A stretch of DNA of 64,000 nt, from positions 1,676 through 65,675 of the forward strand of contig JBPOJJ010000002.1 in NCBI GenBank assembly GCA_052033715.1. The letters are read 5' to 3'. Of the stretch, positions 31,333 through 58,916 are shown in pieces. Every line of letters starts with the position of its first letter. The stretch's first letter is position 1. Made by a program: the position numbers and the translations under genes. The DNA comes from Patescibacteria group bacterium. GTDB lineage: Bacteria > Patescibacteriota > Minisyncoccia > Phycocordibacterales > CSBR16-119. The notes below the pieces were generated by a model, which was given only the letters and a program-made list of their open reading frames with translations, was not told where the DNA came from and did not search any database.

Positions 31333-31490
31333 AAGCGGAGCAAAACATGCCAGAAAAAGTTTTCAAACGCACCCGCAGTCCTGACGCCAAAGCGGAAGGA
31401 CGTGAGGGGGCGCACCTCTATTTCGACGGGTGTTACTTAGGAGGAATAGGCGCGCTTTTTGAAAACTTTTTCTGGCATGTTTTGCGGAGC
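31333..31490. repeat. structured intergenic element, copy A: conserved core flanked by ~26-bp closing inverted repeat
   Basis: AAGCGGAGC + stem AAAACATGCCAGAAAAAGTTTTCAAA ... core GAAGGACGTGAGGGGGCGCACCTCTATTTC..GTGTTACTTAGGAGGAATAGGCGCGC ... stem TTTGAAAACTTTTCTGGCATGTTTT + GCGGAGC; abuts stop codon of upstream ATPase gene. Confidence 0.6.
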
Positions 31491-34225
31491 TATATTTTCA
31501 TGAACTTATCCATCACTTCCTTCTCCACTTCATCTCTCGGCCTGCCGAATTTAAGGAATGACAATTCTTTGAGCGAGTCAACGATTTCCGGATTACCTGG
31601 TGGCAAGTCTTGAGTTCGAATGTTAAATGGTTTGACTGGTACACCATCAACAAGCATCGAAATGTAGGCGTTTCGATTATCGAGCTTCAATATGTCTTGG
31701 ACCGTAAACGTCGGTTCGAGACGTTTGACCAAAACCTCGGCATCTTCGGAGCTGATGCGAAAAATTCCCATTGAACCGACGTTTCCGAGAACCGCGTTTC
31801 TAATGTCATCAGAGAGCTGTGACAAGTATTGATGTGCAACATTAAGTGAGAGTTTGTATTTGCGAGCTTCGGAGAGGATTGATGAAATTGAGGGTGTGGT
31901 GAAGTTCTGGAACTCGTCAATATAGAGATAAAACGGTGGCAAACTTCCGGCTCCGTCAGCACGCGACAGTGCGGCCATCTGGATTTTGCCGACAAGTATG
32001 AGACCGAGTAGGTTCGCATTGATATCACCGAGCCTTCCCTTTGACAGGTTCACCAAGAGAATTTTCTTATTATCAATAATCTCGCGGAAATTGAAACTCG
32101 ATTTCTCCTGCGCAATAATCGGACGCATGATTTCGTTTGAGATAAACGTGTCGAATTTGGACGTGATGTATGGCACAAAGTTCTCAAGACCCTGCTCACC
32201 CGTCGTCGCCTCAGCCGTTTTCCAAAACTGGGTGATGATTGGGTTCGTACAATGAGACAATTTCATATCGCGGAATTTCTTGTCCGAAAGCACGCGACCA
32301 ATTTCAAGCACGGTGTTTCCTGATTCTGGATGGGCCATAACCAATCCAGCGGAATTTTTAAAATATTGTTCGAATAGCGGTCCGCCGGCCGTCTTCATGT
32401 CAAAGAGCTGATTAAAAATGCCTAGCAGTTCGTTAATAACGAGAGTTTTCTGTTCTGGACGCTCTGGGTCAAACTCAAGCATATTGAGCGCCATCGGCCG
32501 AGAGGTCGAAGCTGGATCAAAGTAGATAACGTCATCAATTCGATGTTTTGGAATATAAGAGAGAATTTTCTGAATATCAGTTCCGTGCGGATCGATATAA
32601 CAAACCCCATCACCTCGCTCAATATCCTGACGAATCATATTCATGAGAATTCCCGTCTTACCCGTTCCTGTTTGACCGATAACGTAAAAATGTCGCATAC
32701 GATCAATTTCTTTCAAGAACACGTCGGTATCTACACCACGATAAGAGTTGATACCAATCTGAATACCGTCAGTCCCCATATTGATAGGCACTGCCCCTAC
32801 ACCGGCTTTGGACTCACGAAGTTCTGGTGAGCCAGTCGTACCAACTGGGAAATGCACAAGCGTAGAAAGCTCTTTGAAATTTAGCGGCATAGCGTCGCGC
32901 TCGTTTGGCATACGGAAAGAAAATGCATGAAAAAATTGCGTCGTGTCTTTTTCTTGGACCTTGTGAAATCGAACACTGTTAGAGTTCGCCTTGGTAAATT
33001 GGGAAAAAGACGACTCAATGTTCGATATTATCTCGGCGGTACGGCCAGCGGATGGCGATGACGCAATGATGCGAATGTTTGCCAAGACGATGGTTGATTT
33101 GATTTTTTCAGAAATATTTTCGACGGCTCGATCATCGACGTCTTTGCCCTCATCGGACTTTTCCCTCTCCGCGACTTTCTGACTTTTGAAAAGTGATGTA
33201 CCGAAATTCTTGAACTCTTGTTTTATATCGTGAAAATCATCAAGCGCGTGTTTCAATTTTTCTCCATGTTTTACTTTGTCCAAGATTTTGGAGAATTTTT
33301 TGATATACGTGTCGCCAGCCGGCATAATGACGAACTGTAAAGCGGCTCCTTCGGTTGTCTTGTCGAGCTTGGAAAAGGCGTTCAAAATCGCCCCCATTGG
33401 ATCGTGGTCAAATTCGTCGTGAGTCTTGAGCGGAAAGACATCATGATCAGAAAGTGTGGCATAAGCACCCGAGGTTACGCCCTTGTCGATAAAAATATTG
33501 TAGTCGTTGGTGACTTCGGTCACACGAGCGTTTTTATAAAAAGAAAGAATTTGTTTTTCTAGCAAGCTCTTGCGATCCTTTGGAATTGAAACGTAGAGGA
33601 TTATTTCCGGTGAATCATGTGAGACAGAAATTTCAATAGTGAAATATTGCTTGAAACGATTTTGCTCACCTGACGCAATCGTCTGCATGCCGGCCAAAAA
33701 CTGCTCCATGGCCGTGAGGAAATCTTTAAAACTTTTACTCTCACCTTCGAGTGGCGGAAGCGTCACTTCGAAAAGAGCGAGGTTCAATGACTTCCATTCC
33801 GGCGTAGTTTCTTTGAGACCCGGAATATTGCCAGAGGTGTGCAAGAACTGAACAAGAAATCGGTGAAAATCATCCTCGACGTGAGGATTTTTCAAGCGCG
33901 ACACAATTTCCATGGTGTTTTTGATTCCGTGTTCGAGCAACATTCCATACAACTCCTCGATCTGGCTATCGTGCTCTTCGGGCTTGAGCGCGAGAGCTAC
34001 CGCTTCGGTTTGGGTATCTTCCATGCGGAAATTATCGTGCAAGACTTCGGCCGAGTCAGCTTTCTTGTACGCAGACAATGTCTCATGTGTCGCCTCTTCG
34101 CGAGACTTCTCGATATTTTGGCTAGCCAGAGATTGCTCATGCTTGGCGACTTGTTCTCTCAAATACGAAAGCTCCTCTTCGGGAGTTTTAAACTTCGGAG
34201 CTTCTCTCGAACCACCAAATTCCAT
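31490..34225 (-). CDS. VirB4/TraC-like (T4SS-type) P-loop ATPase, 911 aa, with ~500-aa uncharacterised N-terminal region
   Basis: Walker A HFYVIGQTGTGKTG followed by ...GVCYIDPHGT; Walker B YLYIDEFQNF; layout (long N-domain then ATPase) resembles VirB4/CagE/TrbE; no other T4SS genes nearby. Confidence 0.55.
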   Translation of the reverse strand: MEFGGSREAPKFKTPEEELSYLREQVAKHEQSLASQNIEKSREEATHETLSAYKKADSAEVLHDNFRMEDTQTEAVALALKPEEHDSQIEELYGMLLEHGIKNTMEIVSRLKNPHVEDDFHRFLVQFLHTSGNIPGLKETTPEWKSLNLALFEVTLPPLEGESKSFKDFLTAMEQFLAGMQTIASGEQNRFKQYFTIEISVSHDSPEIILYVSIPKDRKSLLEKQILSFYKNARVTEVTNDYNIFIDKGVTSGAYATLSDHDVFPLKTHDEFDHDPMGAILNAFSKLDKTTEGAALQFVIMPAGDTYIKKFSKILDKVKHGEKLKHALDDFHDIKQEFKNFGTSLFKSQKVAEREKSDEGKDVDDRAVENISEKIKSTIVLANIRIIASSPSAGRTAEIISNIESSFSQFTKANSNSVRFHKVQEKDTTQFFHAFSFRMPNERDAMPLNFKELSTLVHFPVGTTGSPELRESKAGVGAVPINMGTDGIQIGINSYRGVDTDVFLKEIDRMRHFYVIGQTGTGKTGILMNMIRQDIERGDGVCYIDPHGTDIQKILSYIPKHRIDDVIYFDPASTSRPMALNMLEFDPERPEQKTLVINELLGIFNQLFDMKTAGGPLFEQYFKNSAGLVMAHPESGNTVLEIGRVLSDKKFRDMKLSHCTNPIITQFWKTAEATTGEQGLENFVPYITSKFDTFISNEIMRPIIAQEKSSFNFREIIDNKKILLVNLSKGRLGDINANLLGLILVGKIQMAALSRADGAGSLPPFYLYIDEFQNFTTPSISSILSEARKYKLSLNVAHQYLSQLSDDIRNAVLGNVGSMGIFRISSEDAEVLVKRLEPTFTVQDILKLDNRNAYISMLVDGVPVKPFNIRTQDLPPGNPEIVDSLKELSFLKFGRPRDEVEKEVMDKFMKI

Positions 34226-34234
34226 AACAATATT

Positions 34235-34295
34235 GTATCATGCACCGAAAAAAGTATCTGTAGAAATGAAAGCGCCCCCGCTGTTGGCGGGGGCA
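34235..34295 (-). terminator. putative terminator after pyrC (GCCCCCGC-TGTT-GCGGGGGC) with downstream T-tract
   Basis: 8-bp GC stem; T-run ~20 nt downstream on minus strand; followed by TACAAT-like -10 for the ATPase gene. Confidence 0.4.
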
Positions 34296-34314
34296 CTCAT
34301 CTGCAAAGGGTTCT

Positions 34315-35487
34315 TCAGTCCATTCGATGGGCTGGATCTTCAACATCTTCTGGAATGAGGAGTTCGGGCCTCAAAGCCTCCGGGATGGTGGGCTTCCAAG
34401 ACAGCCTGCTACCTGCCATGAGCGGTGTGATGCCACCATAAGATGGTGGAATTTCCCAACCTTCTTCGCCCGCGTATTCAAGCTCGAACGTGTCATCGTT
34501 CGGCTCCATTCCGTAGATACGTGCACCGTTCGTGACAGTGAAAGCTTCGAATGCTGGATGGTCAAGCCTCATCATCTGGTCGAAAATATAGACCATCAAT
34601 GGCCCCATCACTGGCGAACTGAAAACGCCAGGGCATCCGCAACTGCAGAGCTTTGTCGGATCGAGGTGTGGCGCCGAATCGGGTCCAAGATGGAGCTTGT
34701 TGTATCCTAGTTCATCGGCACGAAGCACCGCTGTAAGCAATGCTTGTTGATCAACGAATGTCTGCACCGGTGGACGACAGTGATGAAATGGGTTGATGCC
34801 AGGATTTCCACCAGCGACCGGCCACTCCAAGACATCGTTACGTGTCATCCAAAGATGCTGCGGGGTAATGCCGCCTGTAATGCACTCCGGCATCTTCAAG
34901 ACCATTTCTAGTGTGCTCGCGGTAGAAATGTGCTCGATGTTGAAACGCACGCCCGGGAATTTCTCAACAAGTCCCAAGAATGCCTCTTCCATGAACACGC
35001 CTTCGCGTGCGTATGTATCGATCTTCTCGCCCGGCTGTTCGCCGTGCAAACAGATGATGAGCTCGCGAGATGCTGCTTTTTCGATCGCAGAGTACATTTC
35101 TTGGAATGAATTCCAAGCACTTCCCTTTTCGTTCGAATTGGTCACACCCTCGGGATAGATCTTGACCGAGCGACCACCGAGGCTTTGAAACGCGGCAAGC
35201 TCTAGTAGATGAGTGTCTTTCACCAGCTTCATCGCAACACTATGCCTCATCTGTGGTGCCCTTCTGTGAAGTTCGCGCCGGTAATTCTGGGAATCAGTCG
35301 CACTGAGAATTGGCGGAGCCGTATTCGGCATCCACACCTCGTGTTGCGCCCACCAAGCAGTGGTCGTTACGGCGGTATGGAAGCGTGGTACAGGCTTTTC
35401 GTTGCCAATCACGTTGCGAGCGTGCCCGTGGGTCTGGAAGAACTTACGGAATTTTCGGCGTTCGCCGATTTGCGGTCGTGTGTTCAT
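34315..35487 (-). CDS. pyrC: dihydroorotase (E. coli PyrC-type, class II)
   Basis: ~390 aa from internal ATG (MNTRPQ...). PyrC motifs WMPNTAPP, ITPQHLWMTRNDV, GPDSAPH, SCGCPGVF, FTVTNGARIYG. ATGA overlap with pyrD stop. GC-rich (~55%). Confidence 0.85.
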   Translation of the reverse strand: MNTRPQIGERRKFRKFFQTHGHARNVIGNEKPVPRFHTAVTTTAWWAQHEVWMPNTAPPILSATDSQNYRRELHRRAPQMRHSVAMKLVKDTHLLELAAFQSLGGRSVKIYPEGVTNSNEKGSAWNSFQEMYSAIEKAASRELIICLHGEQPGEKIDTYAREGVFMEEAFLGLVEKFPGVRFNIEHISTASTLEMVLKMPECITGGITPQHLWMTRNDVLEWPVAGGNPGINPFHHCRPPVQTFVDQQALLTAVLRADELGYNKLHLGPDSAPHLDPTKLCSCGCPGVFSSPVMGPLMVYIFDQMMRLDHPAFEAFTVTNGARIYGMEPNDDTFELEYAGEEGWEIPPSYGGITPLMAGSRLSWKPTIPEALRPELLIPEDVEDPAHRMD

Positions 35488-36446
35488 GCGAAGTTTGGGT
35501 GTTGGTTGATGGTTTTGATGAGTTCTTTCATGCGCCATGGACGCGTGATAGCAGCGGTACCGAGTGAAATGCCTTTGACGCATTTCAATTCAGCAAGCTG
35601 TTCAATATCCTGGACGGATGTAACTCCGCCCCCGGCAATGATCGGCTTTTTGAAGCCGCTATACTCAGCATGTTGAAGCCACTGCAGTGTCGTTCCGAAG
35701 ATTGGTTGTCCTGACAGCCCGCCGCCGCCATACTTTTTGAGAGGCGAGCCGTTTGGGAAATAGGTATGTACACCAGCTTCGGAAATGGCGCCGAATGGAA
35801 GAGTGTTGAAGCAAACAAGTCCAGCGCAAGCCGGATGTTCTTCGATCGCCTTGGCATCTTCAACGGACGTAAGCTGGTTGATCTTGACCAAGATCGGAAC
35901 ATCCAGGCTCGCAAGAACATCCAGAAGCGGCTTCGCAGCTTTTGCGGTCTTCGCTGTATCATGACCAGTATTAGGACAAGACACGTTCAGCTGTACCGCG
36001 AATTTCGTCATAAACCTGGTCTTGTTGACCAGATCTACGAATCCTCGCGCCTGAAATTCCTGCGCAATGGGATCGTCGCCGATCGCCATGAACGAGAGCA
36101 TGAACGGATCACGTCTACGCTGCCAGTGACCTTGTGCAATTAGGTGCGCAACTCCAGGTCCGCTAAGTCCAACCGAGTTCAGAACAAGGTTGTTAACGAA
36201 ATCGACGTGGACCGAATCCGGAAACATCTTCTTCAGGCCGATTTGATTCTCGGTCAATTCAGTATTCCCCTTGTTAGGATTGAATGTCGTCGTCTTGGCA
36301 CAGAACGTCATACCATCGAATGTAAATCCAGGCATGAGTTTGTAGAACGGATGATGGCGGTACTCGGTACCAGCATCACCCCCGAAGAAGCCTTGAACGC
36401 CAGAGGCGCCCACGGCAGGACTGAAGTGGATTCCTCCGATATTCAT
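35484..36446 (-). CDS. pyrD: dihydroorotate dehydrogenase family protein (class 1 DHOD/DHPD-like TIM barrel)
   Basis: 320 aa; NSVGLSGPG, LNVSCPNTGH, GGGGLSGQPI, IIAGGGVTSVQD motifs matching class-1 DHOD; GC-rich. Confidence 0.7.
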   Translation of the reverse strand: MNIGGIHFSPAVGASGVQGFFGGDAGTEYRHHPFYKLMPGFTFDGMTFCAKTTTFNPNKGNTELTENQIGLKKMFPDSVHVDFVNNLVLNSVGLSGPGVAHLIAQGHWQRRRDPFMLSFMAIGDDPIAQEFQARGFVDLVNKTRFMTKFAVQLNVSCPNTGHDTAKTAKAAKPLLDVLASLDVPILVKINQLTSVEDAKAIEEHPACAGLVCFNTLPFGAISEAGVHTYFPNGSPLKKYGGGGLSGQPIFGTTLQWLQHAEYSGFKKPIIAGGGVTSVQDIEQLAELKCVKGISLGTAAITRPWRMKELIKTINQHPNFA

Positions 36447-47849: not shown

Positions 47850-47927
47850 AAAAACATTTTAACAGGCGCTTAAACTATTTGACAAATCCAAATATGTATG
47901 CTAGTTTACCACACAAACGAGTTCCCG

Positions 47928-48335
47928 ATGAAATACATCCTCTCCCTTGTAGTCGGCCTCCTTTACGGAGGATGGCCAATCCTCGCCAGCAAATCCGGGG
48001 CTAAGCCGTTCTGGATCTCCCTGTCGATATCTCTCATGACGGTCGTAACCATCCTTGTGATGGGAAACAAGAACGTCATGACGAATATCCCGAGCGGTAA
48101 GATGCTCTGGGTACTGGTTATCGCAGGGCTGATGAATGGTGTAGCTACGTGGTACTACGGCCGGCTTGTAGGAACGCCTGGCTGGAACGTGTCCACACTG
48201 GTATCGATATCAATGATGGCCCTCGTCTTGACATCGACAATTGGTGGAATCGTTTTCGACCACCAACCAGCGACCACGAGTAAGCTCATTGGCATAACCT
48301 TGGCGCTACCCGCCATATGGCTCATGTCACGCTGA
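47928..48335 (+). CDS. small 4-TM membrane protein (SMR/DMT-like), paralog 2
   Basis: 135 aa from ATG at 47928 (MKYILSLVVGLLYGG...); paralogous to 46733..47158. Confidence 0.5.
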   Translation: MKYILSLVVGLLYGGWPILASKSGAKPFWISLSISLMTVVTILVMGNKNVMTNIPSGKMLWVLVIAGLMNGVATWYYGRLVGTPGWNVSTLVSISMMALVLTSTIGGIVFDHQPATTSKLIGITLALPAIWLMSR

Positions 48336-48354
48336 CACAACCCACCCCAAAGCA

Positions 48355-48390
48355 AAGGGCCCCGTAAGGGGTCCTTCATGCTTTCTAGTT
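48355..48390 (+). terminator. rho-independent terminator with GNRA (GTAA) tetraloop: AAAGGGCCCC-GTAA-GGGGTCCTT + T-tract
   Basis: near-duplicate of the 47176 terminator. Confidence 0.65.
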
Positions 48391-55038: not shown

Positions 55039-55716
55039 ATGAAAGGATTTACTATTTTTATCATCTTGGTCGCCCTTGTCGTTGTCGGATTCTTGGTCTT
55101 GCGAAAACCAGCCACCGCACCAACCACAGAAGATCAAATGGTTGATACAAATCTAAGCAACATAAACACAAAAGACGAAAGCGTTGACGGTTCGAAAGAA
55201 TTTGACGCCTCAGCAAGTTCTGCAACTTGGACTGGATCAAAGAAACTTATTGCCACCTGGATAGACAAAGGGACAATCAAAATCAAATCTGGAAATGCTT
55301 TGTTCGATAAAGGGGCACTTGTTGGTGGACTGGTTGTCTTTGATATGAATTCGATCCAAGCGACAACTACGGGTGCTGGTGGTGGACAAGATAAACTGAG
55401 TGAAAATTTAAAATCAGATGATTTCTTTTCGGCGGAAAAATTCCCTGAAGCCAAATTTGTTATAACTTCTGCGACACATGAAGCTGGAGATACATACATG
55501 TTAACTGGCGATCTAACCATCAAGGGAAAAACTCTACCGACGACATTCCCTGTTGAAGTTGTAACAACAAACGGCAAAGTTACAATCATGGGTAGCGCGA
55601 CAATTGACCGAACTTTGTATGATGTGCGCTTTGGATCGGACAAATTCTTTCCTGACCTTGGAGACAATGTTATAAACGATGAATTTACACTCGAATTTAA
55701 AGCGGTAACTAAATAA
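55039..55716 (+). CDS. YceI-like family protein (secreted/lipid-binding beta-barrel), N-terminal TM/signal anchor
   Basis: 225 aa; YceI-like segments (FDASASSATWTGSK..., LTIKGKTLPTTFPVEV...DRTLYDV). Confidence 0.7.
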   Translation: MKGFTIFIILVALVVVGFLVLRKPATAPTTEDQMVDTNLSNINTKDESVDGSKEFDASASSATWTGSKKLIATWIDKGTIKIKSGNALFDKGALVGGLVVFDMNSIQATTTGAGGGQDKLSENLKSDDFFSAEKFPEAKFVITSATHEAGDTYMLTGDLTIKGKTLPTTFPVEVVTTNGKVTIMGSATIDRTLYDVRFGSDKFFPDLGDNVINDEFTLEFKAVTK

Positions 55717-55729
55717 AGAAAGCCCAAGA

Positions 55730-55760
55730 AAAGCCTTAGAAATAGGGCTTTTCTTATACC
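55730..55760 (+). terminator. putative terminator after yceI-like gene (AAAAGCC-TTAGAAATA-GGCTTTT)
   Basis: stem-loop with T-rich tail. Confidence 0.4.
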
Positions 55761-55769
55761 TGGCTACCA

Positions 55770-55799
55770 TTGACAAGTACCCTATAAATATGGTAGTAT
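55770..55799 (+). promoter_or_regulatory. candidate sigma70 promoter for DUF4407 gene (TTGACA ... TAGTAT, 18-nt spacer)
   Basis: consensus -35, near-consensus -10, ~60 nt upstream of ATG. Confidence 0.35.
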
Positions 55800-55860
55800 G
55801 CGGACCGGCATTAGCACCCTGAAAACCGACAACATCACATAGAACCAAACCACACCCAAC

Positions 55861-57408
55861 ATGGAAACTCCCACTCCCGCCACTGCGCCTGAGGGTCCGA
55901 AACGGACTTTCGGGCAGCGCTTCTTTGATTTCTTCGAGAAGCTTCCGAGCTACATAGCCGCATTCTTCTCAGCCATCCCCGCGTTCCTCTATCCTGCTTT
56001 CGCTTGGGTCGCCGGTTGCGACCTTGGCACTGTCAAGACGATGCCCTCGGGTGAGCTGAACAAGAAGGCCTCCCTTGGCCTGGCGATGATCTTCACGATC
56101 ACCGTAGCAGCTCTGGCTGCCAGCAATGCAGCCGGCATATTCCTTTCTGAGGAGATGCGTTGGCCGTTTGCAATTCTGTGGGCACTATTGATCTTCAGCA
56201 TCGACCGAATGATCATCGTATCCCTGGACATGCAGAAGGCGGAGGGCAATGGCGGCAAGGGTTTACGTAAAGTCCTGACCGTCGTTTTCCGTTTCATCAT
56301 CATCTTCTTCATGAGCTATATCACTTCGACTTCGGTCGAGATGATCGTGTTCAAGAAAGAGATCGCCAGCGTGATCACGGAAAAGCGCTACGCGGAAAAC
56401 AAGAAGATCAACGCGGAAGCTGATTCAGCTGAAGCGGTGGTCGACACCGCCCGGATCGAAGCCACCATGCAAGTGCGCGCAGCACGCCTGGAAGTGGAGC
56501 GCTACAGCGCGAAACTGGACTCCGAGATCGACACTCTGCAGAAGGAAATCAAATCGCGACGCGACCTGCTCCAAGAGGAGGTTGCCGGCCGAGTTGGTTC
56601 CGGAAAGCAAGGAATGGGCCCAACAGCCAAGGCCATTATGCTCAACATCACTGCGGACTCGACCCGGCTTGCCGTGCTCGAAGCTCGACGTGATTCGGCT
56701 ATCGCAAATTCAACCGCGATAGGTGAGCTCAATGCAGCGGAGGAATTCGCTGCAAAGGCTGTGGTTCGGCTCGACAAGCGAAGCGCGCTGATCAAGGAAG
56801 AACGACTGGCGAAGCTTGCAAAAGTGAGTCACGTCGTCGGTGACGGCTTCATGGACCGCTACCTGGCACTTGGAGAACTCCGAGGAAAGGCATCGTTCAT
56901 CATGATCGTCGTATTCGTCATCCTGATGTTGATCGAATCCTTACCGGTGATCCTTAAGCTCTCATCTAGCGATGGCCTCTACGAGGAAGCGCTCGGGAAG
57001 CAGCTACAGACACACCGAGTACAAGTGTTCAACAAGCAGGAACTCGATCTGGCCACACAAGAAGGTGAGCACCTCGGGAAACTGATCGCAGCCAAAAAGA
57101 TCATAAACGAGCACCAAGGCGCGATCCTGGACAAGGAAGAGGAATACATGACCGACATTGCCACGAAGAAGCACGATCTGGAAGAGGCCCGTCGCACGAT
57201 CATCGCAGCCGAGAACGAAACGGCCATGGCGGTCGCCAGCGAGCGGATGAAAGGCTTGACGGCAAGACTTGATCAGACAGCTGCCTTCATCAATGACGCC
57301 AATGCGAAGCTTGTCAACACGCCGGAGGAGCCGCAGCCAGTGCGCGCGGCAAAGAAGAACGTCCTGCGTCAACTGCTGGACGAAGTGCAGAAGACGGTGT
57401 TGTCGTAA
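55861..57408 (+). CDS. DUF4407-like membrane protein with long coiled-coil region
   Basis: 515 aa. N-terminal TM helices with the ...IFSIDRMIIVSL motif resembling the DUF4407 'DRFIVSS' signature. Extended coiled coil and a second TM block. GC-rich (~58%) versus the flanks. Confidence 0.55.
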   Translation: METPTPATAPEGPKRTFGQRFFDFFEKLPSYIAAFFSAIPAFLYPAFAWVAGCDLGTVKTMPSGELNKKASLGLAMIFTITVAALAASNAAGIFLSEEMRWPFAILWALLIFSIDRMIIVSLDMQKAEGNGGKGLRKVLTVVFRFIIIFFMSYITSTSVEMIVFKKEIASVITEKRYAENKKINAEADSAEAVVDTARIEATMQVRAARLEVERYSAKLDSEIDTLQKEIKSRRDLLQEEVAGRVGSGKQGMGPTAKAIMLNITADSTRLAVLEARRDSAIANSTAIGELNAAEEFAAKAVVRLDKRSALIKEERLAKLAKVSHVVGDGFMDRYLALGELRGKASFIMIVVFVILMLIESLPVILKLSSSDGLYEEALGKQLQTHRVQVFNKQELDLATQEGEHLGKLIAAKKIINEHQGAILDKEEEYMTDIATKKHDLEEARRTIIAAENETAMAVASERMKGLTARLDQTAAFINDANAKLVNTPEEPQPVRAAKKNVLRQLLDEVQKTVLS

Positions 57409-57427
57409 GCAACCACCCTACCATTGG

Positions 57428-57458
57428 AGAGGGCCCGCACCGCGGGCCCTCTTTTCAT
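57428..57458 (+). terminator. rho-independent terminator (AGAGGGCCCGC-ACC-GCGGGCCCTCT + TTTCATTT)
   Basis: 11-bp GC stem; may also terminate convergent DoxX gene. Confidence 0.6.
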
Positions 57459-57475
57459 TTCAATTATTTTTATGA

Positions 57476-57841
57476 TTATGACGCTAGCGCAATAATCATC
57501 AGAAGTGCGCCAACGATGGCCATGTTCTTCTGGAAATTAATTCGCTCCCCCATCTTCATCATCGGATCAGTAATTTTCCAGTATTGGTGCATCATGAAAC
57601 TTGTTCCGACAAGAAAGGCCACGAGAATCCAGCAACCGAGCGCCAAGCTCATACCAGTAAGTACCGAAGCGCCTCCGATGAAAAGCATCGCGCCACTAAC
57701 AGCAACAGAAATTTTCGGATGTGGAACTTTCTTTGAGCCAGCATATCCGGCTAAAGATTCGATGTTGGCAAAGTGATTGTAGGCATTGTACAAGAAATAT
57801 GCTCCCAAAATTATCCGTCCCAAGAAATAAATGTTTTCCAT
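57476..57841 (-). CDS. DoxX-family membrane protein
   Basis: 121 aa; DoxX N-terminal pattern (FLGRIILGAYFLYNAYNHF). Confidence 0.6.
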   Translation of the reverse strand: MENIYFLGRIILGAYFLYNAYNHFANIESLAGYAGSKKVPHPKISVAVSGAMLFIGGASVLTGMSLALGCWILVAFLVGTSFMMHQYWKITDPMMKMGERINFQKNMAIVGALLMIIALAS

Positions 57842-58001: not shown

Positions 58002-58916
58002 CTACCCGTCGAGATCTCCCACTCCCGCCAAGGCAATAGACTGCAAACCATAGACCCTAGCTCTTAGGATCTTGGCAATGTAGTCAGCAAATGCCTCGTC
58101 GTACTCTTGGACAACCTCGAGCACATTCTTGTGAGAGAATTGTGACCCCTCCTGCACTTCCCGAGAATGTCGGCTTTTGTTGGTAACGAGAGACAGAGCA
58201 AGGACCCGACAGCCCATATGATGGAGCGCCAAAGCCTCTGGAACAACAGACATCCCAACCACGTCACCATCTCTCGCGTACTTCCTCACTTCCGCGCGAG
58301 TTTCGATTTGTGGCCCAGGAACTCCAACCAGAATTGTATTCTGGTTGACCTGAACCGTCAGTCTACGACCAGCTACATCACGAGCAAGTTCCTGGTATTT
58401 GAGATCGTAGACCTCTCCGCAATCCAGAAACCTGTCTGGTCCGAAAAGACGAATAGTGTCGACATCTCCCACAAGAGGCGAGACCCCGAGATAACTGCTG
58501 ATGTGATCGTCGAGGATGCAAACCGAGCCCACTTGGTAATCGGTATTGAGTGCACCAACTGCGTTCGTGAGAATGAACTCAGATACGCCCCATTTGGCCA
58601 AGGCTCGCAAATTGGTGACAATGCGATAAGGATCGTAAGCCTCTTCATTGAAGTGTGCCCTTCCTGCCAGCCAGACTACCCTCTCGCCACCAATGACACC
58701 AAGGTAGTACTTACTTTGGTGCCCTTCCGTAACTGGTGTCAGAAAGGGTGTTGGTAGTTCGTCAGACTCCACTTCTCCTTCAAAATGACGAAGGAGATTA
58801 TTCGGTCCCGATGAGCCAGTAATAATGGCAGTTCTGGGAGCGGCTCCAAGGTTTTCTTTGAGCCATTTTACACACTGTTCAACGCTAACGGTATGGTCGT
58901 GCAATGCCGTTGTCAT
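58002..58916 (-). CDS. purine nucleoside phosphorylase (trimeric PNP/MTAP family)
   Basis: 304 aa; PNP-I-like segments (FILTNAVGALN, GMSVVPEALALHHMGCRVLALSLVTN); GC-rich (~53%). Confidence 0.75.
   Translation of the reverse strand: MTTALHDHTVSVEQCVKWLKENLGAAPRTAIITGSSGPNNLLRHFEGEVESDELPTPFLTPVTEGHQSKYYLGVIGGERVVWLAGRAHFNEEAYDPYRIVTNLRALAKWGVSEFILTNAVGALNTDYQVGSVCILDDHISSYLGVSPLVGDVDTIRLFGPDRFLDCGEVYDLKYQELARDVAGRRLTVQVNQNTILVGVPGPQIETRAEVRKYARDGDVVGMSVVPEALALHHMGCRVLALSLVTNKSRHSREVQEGSQFSHKNVLEVVQEYDEAFADYIAKILRARVYGLQSIALAGVGDLDG

Follow-up and report, generated by a model that had tools for sequence, protein, structure and literature searches.

The 64,000-nucleotide stretch analysed here (the window; positions are counted from its first letter) derives from contig JBPOJJ010000002.1 of a Patescibacteria group bacterium (assembly GCA_052033715.1) and carries, between a yceI-like and a doxX-like gene, a ~1.7-kb cassette consisting of a single DUF4407 membrane protein gene with its own promoter, leader and terminator [Table 1]. 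The surrounding genes comprise ileS, argS, msrA, yceI, doxX, a PNP-family phosphorylase gene, glyA, thyA and dcd. An earlier examination of the letters alone (the sequence-only reading) had singled out this region as a GC-rich, horizontally acquired single-gene island. The 515-amino acid open reading frame (ORF) that it described is present as claimed, on the plus strand and with an ATG start, and its proposed kinship with DUF4407 was confirmed by an essentially full-length match to Pfam family PF14362 (151.1 bits against a gathering cut-off of 31.3, E=5.5e-44; profile positions 4-296 of 297, protein residues 59-381). The compositional contrast is also real, although its size had been overstated: the GC content of the ORF is 55.4% rather than ~58%, and that of its 5-kb flanks 44.6% and 45.4% rather than ~40%.

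With first, second and third codon position values (GC1, GC2, GC3) of 0.59, 0.39 and 0.68 and a GC content of 43.9% for the whole window, the ORF represents the window's GC maximum (mean of all 1548-bp segments, 43.9%; standard deviation, 3.6%), and its GC3 of 0.682 ranks first among 57 ORFs (mean 0.448, standard deviation 0.078). The contrast sits almost wholly in third codon positions and is reflected in a deviant codon usage (CTG, 0.41 vs 0.10 in host genes; AAG, 0.76 vs 0.30). Open frames antisense to sense codons ~0-150, in the same phase, were noted in all seven homologues (55989..56312 on the minus strand of the window); they might be taken to hint at dual coding or an antisense gene as the source of the GC3 bias, but such frames are expected when GC3-rich genes avoid sense TTA, CTA and TCA.

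Table 1. Features of the DUF4407 cassette, its flanks and a second cassette of like design (TM, transmembrane helix; AF2, AlphaFold2 model; aa, amino acids of the DUF4407 protein; z, score of the fold).
Feature	Coordinates	Strand	Evidence and remarks
yceI-like gene, left flank	55039..55716	+	Pfam YceI E=1.3e-24; syntenic in all related loci
yceI terminator hairpin	55726..55755		Inverted repeat; -19.3 kcal/mol, z=-3.5; aligns with hairpin of L008 and L085
~1.7-kb cassette	55757..57465	+	In window and L085; absent from L008 and L006 empty sites
Sigma-70-type promoter	55770..55799	+	TTGACA, 18 nt, TG-n-TAGTAT; perfect -35 and extended -10
CA-rich 5' leader, ~54 nt	55800..55860	+	Unstructured (fold z=+0.5), without Shine-Dalgarno motif
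DUF4407 ORF, 515 aa	55861..57408	+	ATG start; Pfam match; AF2 pLDDT 90.3
Subfamily-specific N-terminal hydrophobic helix, aa 30-50	55948..56010	+	Hydropathy 1.73, two prolines; membrane crossing uncertain
Core TM bundle: TM-A aa 63-91, TM-B aa 97-127 (D115-R116), TM-C aa 135-163 (R144)	56047..56349	+	Hydropathy, AF2
Antiparallel coiled-coil hairpin, aa 165-328	56353..56844	+	AF2; predicted outside cytoplasm
Glycine-rich hairpin tip E240-x2-GRVGSGxxGxGPxA, extended to aa 266	56578..56658	+	Subfamily conservation
TM-D aa 345-368, near-invariant E359 and K366	56893..56964	+	Hydropathy, AF2, family alignment
Long helices at the C-terminus, aa 373-483 and 492-514	56977..57402	+	Predicted cytoplasmic; least conserved, 21% mean identity
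Cassette intrinsic terminator	57428..57461	+	GC stem, 3-nt loop, T-rich tail; hairpin 57428..57452
doxX-like gene, right flank	57476..57841	-	Pfam DoxX E=1.4e-8; synteny
Second cassette of like design	47879..48370	+	Between two minus-strand genes

Both expression signals attributed to the gene by the sequence-only reading were recovered. Loose promoter-like sites near the cassette are no more frequent than expected by chance, but the strict pattern TTGACA-N13-16-TGnTAnnnT, to which the near-consensus promoter conforms, occurs twice in 64 kb against 0.10 expected. In all seven related loci the -35 hexamer TTGACA is invariant, and the extended -10 element TGnTAnnAT and the ATGGAA start are retained. 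The leader is 82% identical between the window and L085, a 1.9-kb Logan contig that also carries the cassette, while only 55% of third codon positions are; neither the leader nor the DUF4407 gene has a match in Rfam. The strong terminator is a perfect 11-bp inverted repeat forming 13 pairs when folded (-25.4 kcal/mol, z=-4.7) and followed by TTTTCATTT; it was missed by a simple consensus terminator scan and detected as an inverted repeat and by folding. The terminators of related loci are likewise G+C-rich and preserve the pairing though their stem sequences differ. The gene thus forms a monocistronic unit whose two signals are conserved in related loci, and it is probably well expressed.

Of 47 gene starts examined in the window, just two bear a Shine-Dalgarno-like motif, host genes generally being without one, and many (e.g., 28587, 37902, 46036, 54425) display a TAnAAT box situated 6-8 nt upstream of the ATG, which is suggestive of leaderless mRNAs. 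CA-rich leaders are found instead at the DUF4407, PNP (58916) and 20433 genes.

Relatives of the locus were collected through a glyA-anchored scan of GTDB genomes, which placed the window in Patescibacteria, among Paceibacteria- or Nomurabacteria-like metagenome-assembled genomes, and yielded 80 loci considered within 10 kb of glyA. Only one of these (L007, on the same contig as L001) has a DUF4407 homologue within that distance. In the closest relatives, L008 (argS 87% and doxX 93% identical), L006 and L005, the yceI and doxX genes lie side by side, separated by ~61, ~116 and ~323 bp, respectively, which answers in the positive the synteny question raised by the sequence-only reading. Since these loci lack it, the ~1.7-kb unit is accessory and dispensable, a conclusion that is well supported. 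The empty site of L008 further delineates the unit: there, the convergent yceI and doxX genes share a single bidirectional hairpin terminator; homology with the window stops just past the yceI hairpin (~55757-55762) and restarts at ~57465-57470, at TTATGATTATGACGC, beside the doxX stop codon, so that the extra ~1.7 kb corresponds exactly to promoter, leader, ORF and terminator. In L085, a protein 68-69% identical to that of the window is encoded between the same junctions. The flanks of L085 are 93% identical to those of L008 (138/148), whereas the window flank is 76% identical to L008; the presence or absence of the cassette therefore differs between quite close genomes.

The insert holds one ORF only and neither an integrase nor a transposase, and no tRNA gene is found in the window. 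A search for a target-site duplication or terminal repeats was unconvincing, the candidates being a weak 5-nt TAT(T/C)T and a 9-nt repeat off the junction. The latter, CTACCATTG, occurs at 55765..55773 (inside the promoter) and 57418..57426 (before the terminator) and is probably due to chance because just 7/9 positions are kept in L085. An integron cassette was ruled out: no attC-like site is present, and the gene is driven from a promoter inside the unit.

The gap between yceI and doxX is a variable slot, given that other cargo occupies it in L009, namely a gene for pterin-4a-carbinolamine dehydratase together with an ORF of 144 aa (L009 12793..13807). In the group of L001, it carries a conserved 153-162-aa ORF (L001 8383..8871; L004 1341..1802; L086 1389..1868). 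On a locus-specific rise in GC that would affect whatever the slot carries, the evidence is mixed: GC3 is 0.63-0.73 for the 153-162-aa ORFs but 0.43 for the dehydratase gene of L009. The PNP-family phosphorylase gene of the window (58002..58916, minus strand) is likewise GC-rich (51%) and is found in only some of the relatives (L006, L008, L009), and the DUF4407 gene of the L001 group lies roughly where the PNP gene sits in others.

Word-indexed searches with the single sequence or with 5- or 108-sequence alignments returned five closest proteins each time. An exhaustive HMMER search over 1.84 billion representatives assigned E<=1e-3 to 1421 DUF4407 representatives at 50% identity, and set apart a tight subfamily (P0002 and P0005-P0008, all at or above 437 bits; next scores, 222 bits). 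With the exception of P0008, which could not be placed on contigs, these top matches (P0002, P0005, P0006, P0007) all trace to the same syntenic block. The genes for P0006 (L088, L089, L090) and P0007 (L091, L092) lie between yceI and doxX, and those for P0003, P0004 and P0005 (L004, L001, L086) ~1.5 kb from that slot; in L001 and L004 the gene is located between the small doxX-adjoining ORF and glyA, while the L086 contig ends after the gene. Altogether, homologues of 35-69% identity occur in the slot or at most 1.5 kb away in at least five diverged Patescibacteria lineages. Pairwise protein identities of 37-71% roughly track those of host genes. Synonymous divergence (dS) between the window and L085 genes is 0.97 for a nonsynonymous divergence (dN) of 0.21, and dS ranges from 0.97 to 1.4 among cassette copies overall; flanking genes of the window and L008 display dS values of 1.2-2.6. 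The gene is under purifying selection (dN/dS ~0.2) and evolves faster than its neighbours. A dS of ~1 implies that synonymous sites have essentially turned over since the cassettes diverged.

These data bear directly on the proposal that the cassette is a recent genomic island, received from a donor of ~55-60% GC and not yet drifted to host composition. The island would account for the window's most extreme GC and GC3, for G-ending codons (CTG, AAG) that resemble neither those of host genes nor those of highly expressed genes of L001, for the lack of the gene in the nearest relatives and for the square-wave GC profile across the ORF in L088. It is difficult to reconcile with copies in the same slot that share a promoter, leader and terminator design and are only 35-69% identical, since a dS of ~1 between them would have left ample time for their composition to drift to the host's. 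Integrase, transposase, tRNA and terminal repeats are all missing, and no close homologue was found outside this Patescibacteria clade in the 1.84 billion representatives, nor any in IMG/VR. A recent date for the horizontal acquisition that the sequence-only reading deduced from composition was therefore not borne out and is in our opinion very unlikely. That reading had taken as evidence against itself the occurrence of the gene at the same locus and with similar GC in all relatives; a similar GC is indeed kept, but the gene is patchy rather than universal. That the cassette is an old resident of the slot in this clade, missing in several relatives, rather than a fresh import, is well supported by the sequence comparisons.

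Long residence does not preclude exchange. The metagenome contigs L088 and L089, which come from separate sequencing runs, are identical over 1844 bp (L088 4970..6813), from the last 145 bp of yceI to 27 bp past the DUF4407 stop codon, the first mismatch thereafter falling inside the terminator hairpin. On either side of the tract the two contigs diverge by 2-6% (19/666 in yceI, 22/372 in doxX), and by 14% in dut; at ~3% divergence, ~55 differences would have been expected within it. An identical tract within diverged flanks is what a recent transfer by recombination, or else a gene-specific sweep, would leave behind. Subject to the caveat that both sequences are metagenome contigs, it indicates that the cassette is exchanged between strains by homologous recombination through its conserved flanks. 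IMG/VR contained no member of the subfamily and a scan of Joint Genome Institute (JGI) metagenomes produced a single, distant match.

The deviant composition of the gene is not particular to the window. Every cassette copy has a GC content of 52-56% and a GC3 of 0.59-0.70, whereas the GC3 of host genes runs from 0.14 to 0.6. In L088, the cassette gene (GC 53.9%, GC3 0.60) rises as a square wave from host genes of 28-39% GC and GC3 of 0.14-0.34, and GC1 and GC2 are raised too. In remoter Patescibacteria homologues (L093, L095, L097), the GC excess is smaller or nil. With dS near saturation, the bias cannot be left over from a recent transfer and must be maintained; that a GC-rich usage of codons ending in G or C stays the same whatever the host genome is accordingly a well supported reading of these sequences. 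The candidate causes are selection acting on the codons or the mRNA, a recombination hot spot with biased gene conversion, and membership in a shared accessory-gene pool.

A rival explanation would make the GC richness simply a matter of codon optimisation in a very highly expressed structural envelope protein. Suggestive in this regard is a second cassette of like design [Table 1], which bears the window's only other full-consensus promoter (TTGACA-N15-TGcTAGTTT, 47879..47907), a CA-rich leader, a small ORF with four TM helices (starting at 47898 or 47929 and ending at 48335; no Pfam match) and a GC-rich hairpin past the stop codon. The GC3 of this ORF, 0.66, is the second highest of the window, such that the two GC3-richest ORFs are exactly the two driven by full-consensus promoters and a link between expression design and composition is possible. 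In addition, the highly expressed genes for EF-G, L11, S7 and NusG of L001 also favour AAG, ATC and TTC, avoid AGA and have GC3 values of 0.50-0.58. Yet the codon adaptation index of the DUF4407 gene of L001, computed against the EF-G/S7/L11 set of L001, is 0.61, within the 0.55-0.67 range of ordinary genes; CTG and GTG are preferred by the DUF4407 gene and avoided by the highly expressed set. Codon optimisation is insufficient on both of these grounds, and the elevation of GC1 and GC2 in L088 also speaks against it; we consider it an unlikely explanation.

Turning to the protein, the layout envisaged by the sequence-only reading (an N-terminal TM bundle, a coiled coil of ~250 aa and a second TM block) was correct in outline, except that the coil measures ~180 aa and is followed, past TM-D, by a C-terminal helical region of ~140 aa. 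The AF2 model built on an alignment of 108 family members has a pLDDT of 90.3 and a pTM of 0.65 (pLDDT 65 with five sequences). It places helices at aa 17-27 and 30-50, the second of which is missing from most family members, where a median of 40 aa precedes TM-A. The DUF4407-like DR motif pointed out earlier is the IDR of IFSIDRMIIV, whose R116 is conserved in at least 90% of the 108 aligned members. Near-invariant positions across these members are G73, W107, R116, R144, I168, E240, G243, G251, G253, E359 and K366. In the model, a 77-residue helix (aa 165-241) continues directly from TM-C to a glycine-rich loop (242-253), from which helices 254-325 return toward the membrane, and an amphipathic helix with the motif DGF-x-DRY (aa 329-343) precedes TM-D. 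The TM-C to TM-D spacer is of near-constant length family-wide (median 181 aa; 10th-90th percentile, 161-193), and the tip is the best conserved segment within the subfamily (73% mean pairwise identity, compared with 21-55% for other segments). A Walker-A reading of GRVGSGKQ at the tip was ruled out, the Lys not being conserved and no Ser/Thr following it. Identity to family members outside the subfamily is 18-26%, and 31% to the partial-length match P0009. A profile search of the PDB returned coiled-coil noise only, with no solved structure alike beyond generic helical matches.

Positive-inside counts over the 108 sequences place the segment ahead of TM-A and the loop between TM-B and TM-C in the cytoplasm. 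In a protein of the Rhodococcus plasmid pLW2, the DUF4407 module leads into a C-terminal Ser/Thr kinase domain without a TM helix between the two; in P0077, the module is preceded by an N-terminal SPFH domain with no TM helix before it. Taken together, the charge counts and the two fusions lead to a topology in which both termini would be cytoplasmic and the modelled coiled-coil hairpin, ~12 nm long, would project outside the membrane.

On this basis we propose, with low confidence, that the DUF4407 product is an envelope-spanning stalk protein involved in envelope or surface sensing, scaffolding or protection; this role is favoured, at a similarly low level of confidence, over that of a soluble toxin or of a component of a multi-gene defence system. 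In this model, the four core TM helices would hold a conserved set of buried charges (D115/R116, R144, E359, K366), the fixed-length hairpin would stand outside the cell, and its conserved glycine-rich tip would bind to a partner, or to a component of the envelope, that is itself conserved. The network of TM charges could couple engagement of the tip to the cytoplasmic side, where a kinase or SPFH domain is found in distant relatives and where the variable ~140-aa helical tail is predicted to reside. The sequence-only reading had put forward a membrane-damage effector, an abortive-infection protein and a cell-envelope structural protein as candidates; the evidence on topology favours a protein of the envelope or surface.

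The main competing view of its function, in line with the defence or mobile context suggested by the sequence-only reading, is that of a single-gene anti-phage or abortive-infection membrane effector, or of a superinfection-exclusion protein, which would kill or seal the infected cell. A patchy distribution, exchange from strain to strain and an evolution faster than that of neighbouring genes all speak in favour of such a protein, as do the moron-like autonomy of the unit and a membrane protein with buried charges. Weak homologues (24-29% identity, E~1e-6) are moreover found in Lak megaphages and one on a conjugative plasmid, the latter beside a NYN nuclease gene. PADLOC-DB v2, however, contains no family matching the DUF4407 protein even at E<=1, and NCBIfam returned no match and PHROGs marginal ones only (E>=0.012), to families of unknown function. 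The gene was never seen in a defence island: its neighbours in every Patescibacteria DUF4407 locus examined are housekeeping genes (argS, msrA, yceI, doxX, PNP, glyA, thyA), and the cassette comes without mobility genes or a tRNA. It would be unusual to find a toxic effector under a consensus promoter that looks constitutive, and conservation within the protein peaks at the exposed tip, unlike what a surface arms race would produce. The defence context thus found no support, and the effector itself appears doubtful.

Overall, we put at roughly 60% the probability that the best explanation of the locus is an accessory cassette, old in its slot and recombining, that encodes a membrane stalk protein. 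Several points weigh against it. The L091 copy diverges more than host genes predict, suggestive of a possible replacement between lineages, and long residence presumes that the slot copies are orthologous. Relatives were examined only within 10 kb of glyA, and a copy of the gene could be present in other parts of those genomes. The literature names DUF4407 only in gene lists and tables and offers no characterised homologue, while the genomic contexts examined are heterogeneous, mostly housekeeping, and hold no conserved partner gene. Finally, the topology rests on distant fusions and could be altered by the subfamily-specific helix at aa 30-50.

Comparison with known systems places the cassette protein firmly in its family, whose conserved Arg in the second core TM helix, arrangement of three TM helices, coiled coil and fourth TM helix, and glycine-rich tip it shares; the Patescibacteria subfamily differs by the addition of the N-terminal hydrophobic helix and the long C-terminal helix. 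Phage morons, known from the Hendrix-lab literature, are autonomous promoter-gene-terminator units lying between two genes and often deviant in composition. The cassette resembles them as a single membrane-protein gene with its own promoter and terminator, of deviant GC, between otherwise adjacent genes. It differs in that it does not reside in a prophage, its flanks being chromosomal housekeeping genes devoid of phage genes, and in its long life at one slot. EmrA/AcrA periplasmic adaptors and tweety-homologue (TTYH) channels also possess long extracytoplasmic alpha-helical hairpins, but the scores obtained are at the generic helical level, the sequences are not similar, the TM cores are different, and the surroundings of the cassette contain neither a TolC-like partner nor a transporter gene.

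A further likeness is to the gene clusters of PknB-type transmembrane Ser/Thr kinases in Actinobacteria, which include FHA, PP2C and FtsW/RodA genes. The DUF4407-kinase fusion of pLW2 lies beside PP2C, FHA and FtsW/RodA genes, which suggests that DUF4407 can provide a signalling protein with its membrane or extracellular module; in contrast, the protein of the window lacks a kinase domain, and genes of these kinds are missing from its surroundings. On pLW2 (L087 7118..10370), the NYN-domain gene overlaps the start of the fusion by 8 nt and the PP2C, FHA and FtsW/RodA genes follow; this group could represent a module for signalling or conflict carried by the plasmid.

DUF4407 is a widespread bacterial membrane family without known function or solved structure and with almost no literature, for which this locus provides a natural presence/absence contrast in near-isogenic backgrounds, together with a confident structural and topological hypothesis (an extracellular hairpin of fixed length with a conserved tip) that is directly testable. 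The gene stays at ~55% GC where neighbouring host genes span about 30% to 50% and where synonymous sites have turned over; the assumption that deviant composition denotes recent transfer fails here, which calls for caution with island-finding methods. The surface biology of Patescibacteria, including host attachment and phage resistance, is poorly understood, and a surface stalk that is both accessory and abundant would merit attention in this respect. More speculatively, and we regard this as a long shot, the cassette could be one of a class of self-contained Patescibacteria units, the second being that at 47879..48370, each made up of a consensus promoter, a CA-rich leader, a GC3-rich ORF for a membrane protein and a GC-clamp terminator. 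The composition of such units would be actively maintained irrespective of the host genome, and they would circulate between strains by homologous recombination; the tip of the DUF4407 stalk might then contact a further envelope layer or a second cell, for instance to attach an episymbiont to its host or to exclude phages or competitors.

Two minor observations concern other genes. Small genes for 23S_rRNA_IVP/bAvd-like domains occur in two Patescibacteria loci with DUF4407 genes (L089 8814..9158; L095 5184..5453); four-helix-bundle proteins of this sort are used by diversity-generating retroelements as accessory proteins. The window also has another GC-rich spot at 31490..35583 on the minus strand, where a 422-aa ORF of 53% GC without a Pfam match (34315..35583) adjoins the gene for a 911-aa VirD4/TraG-like type IV coupling protein (31490..34225).

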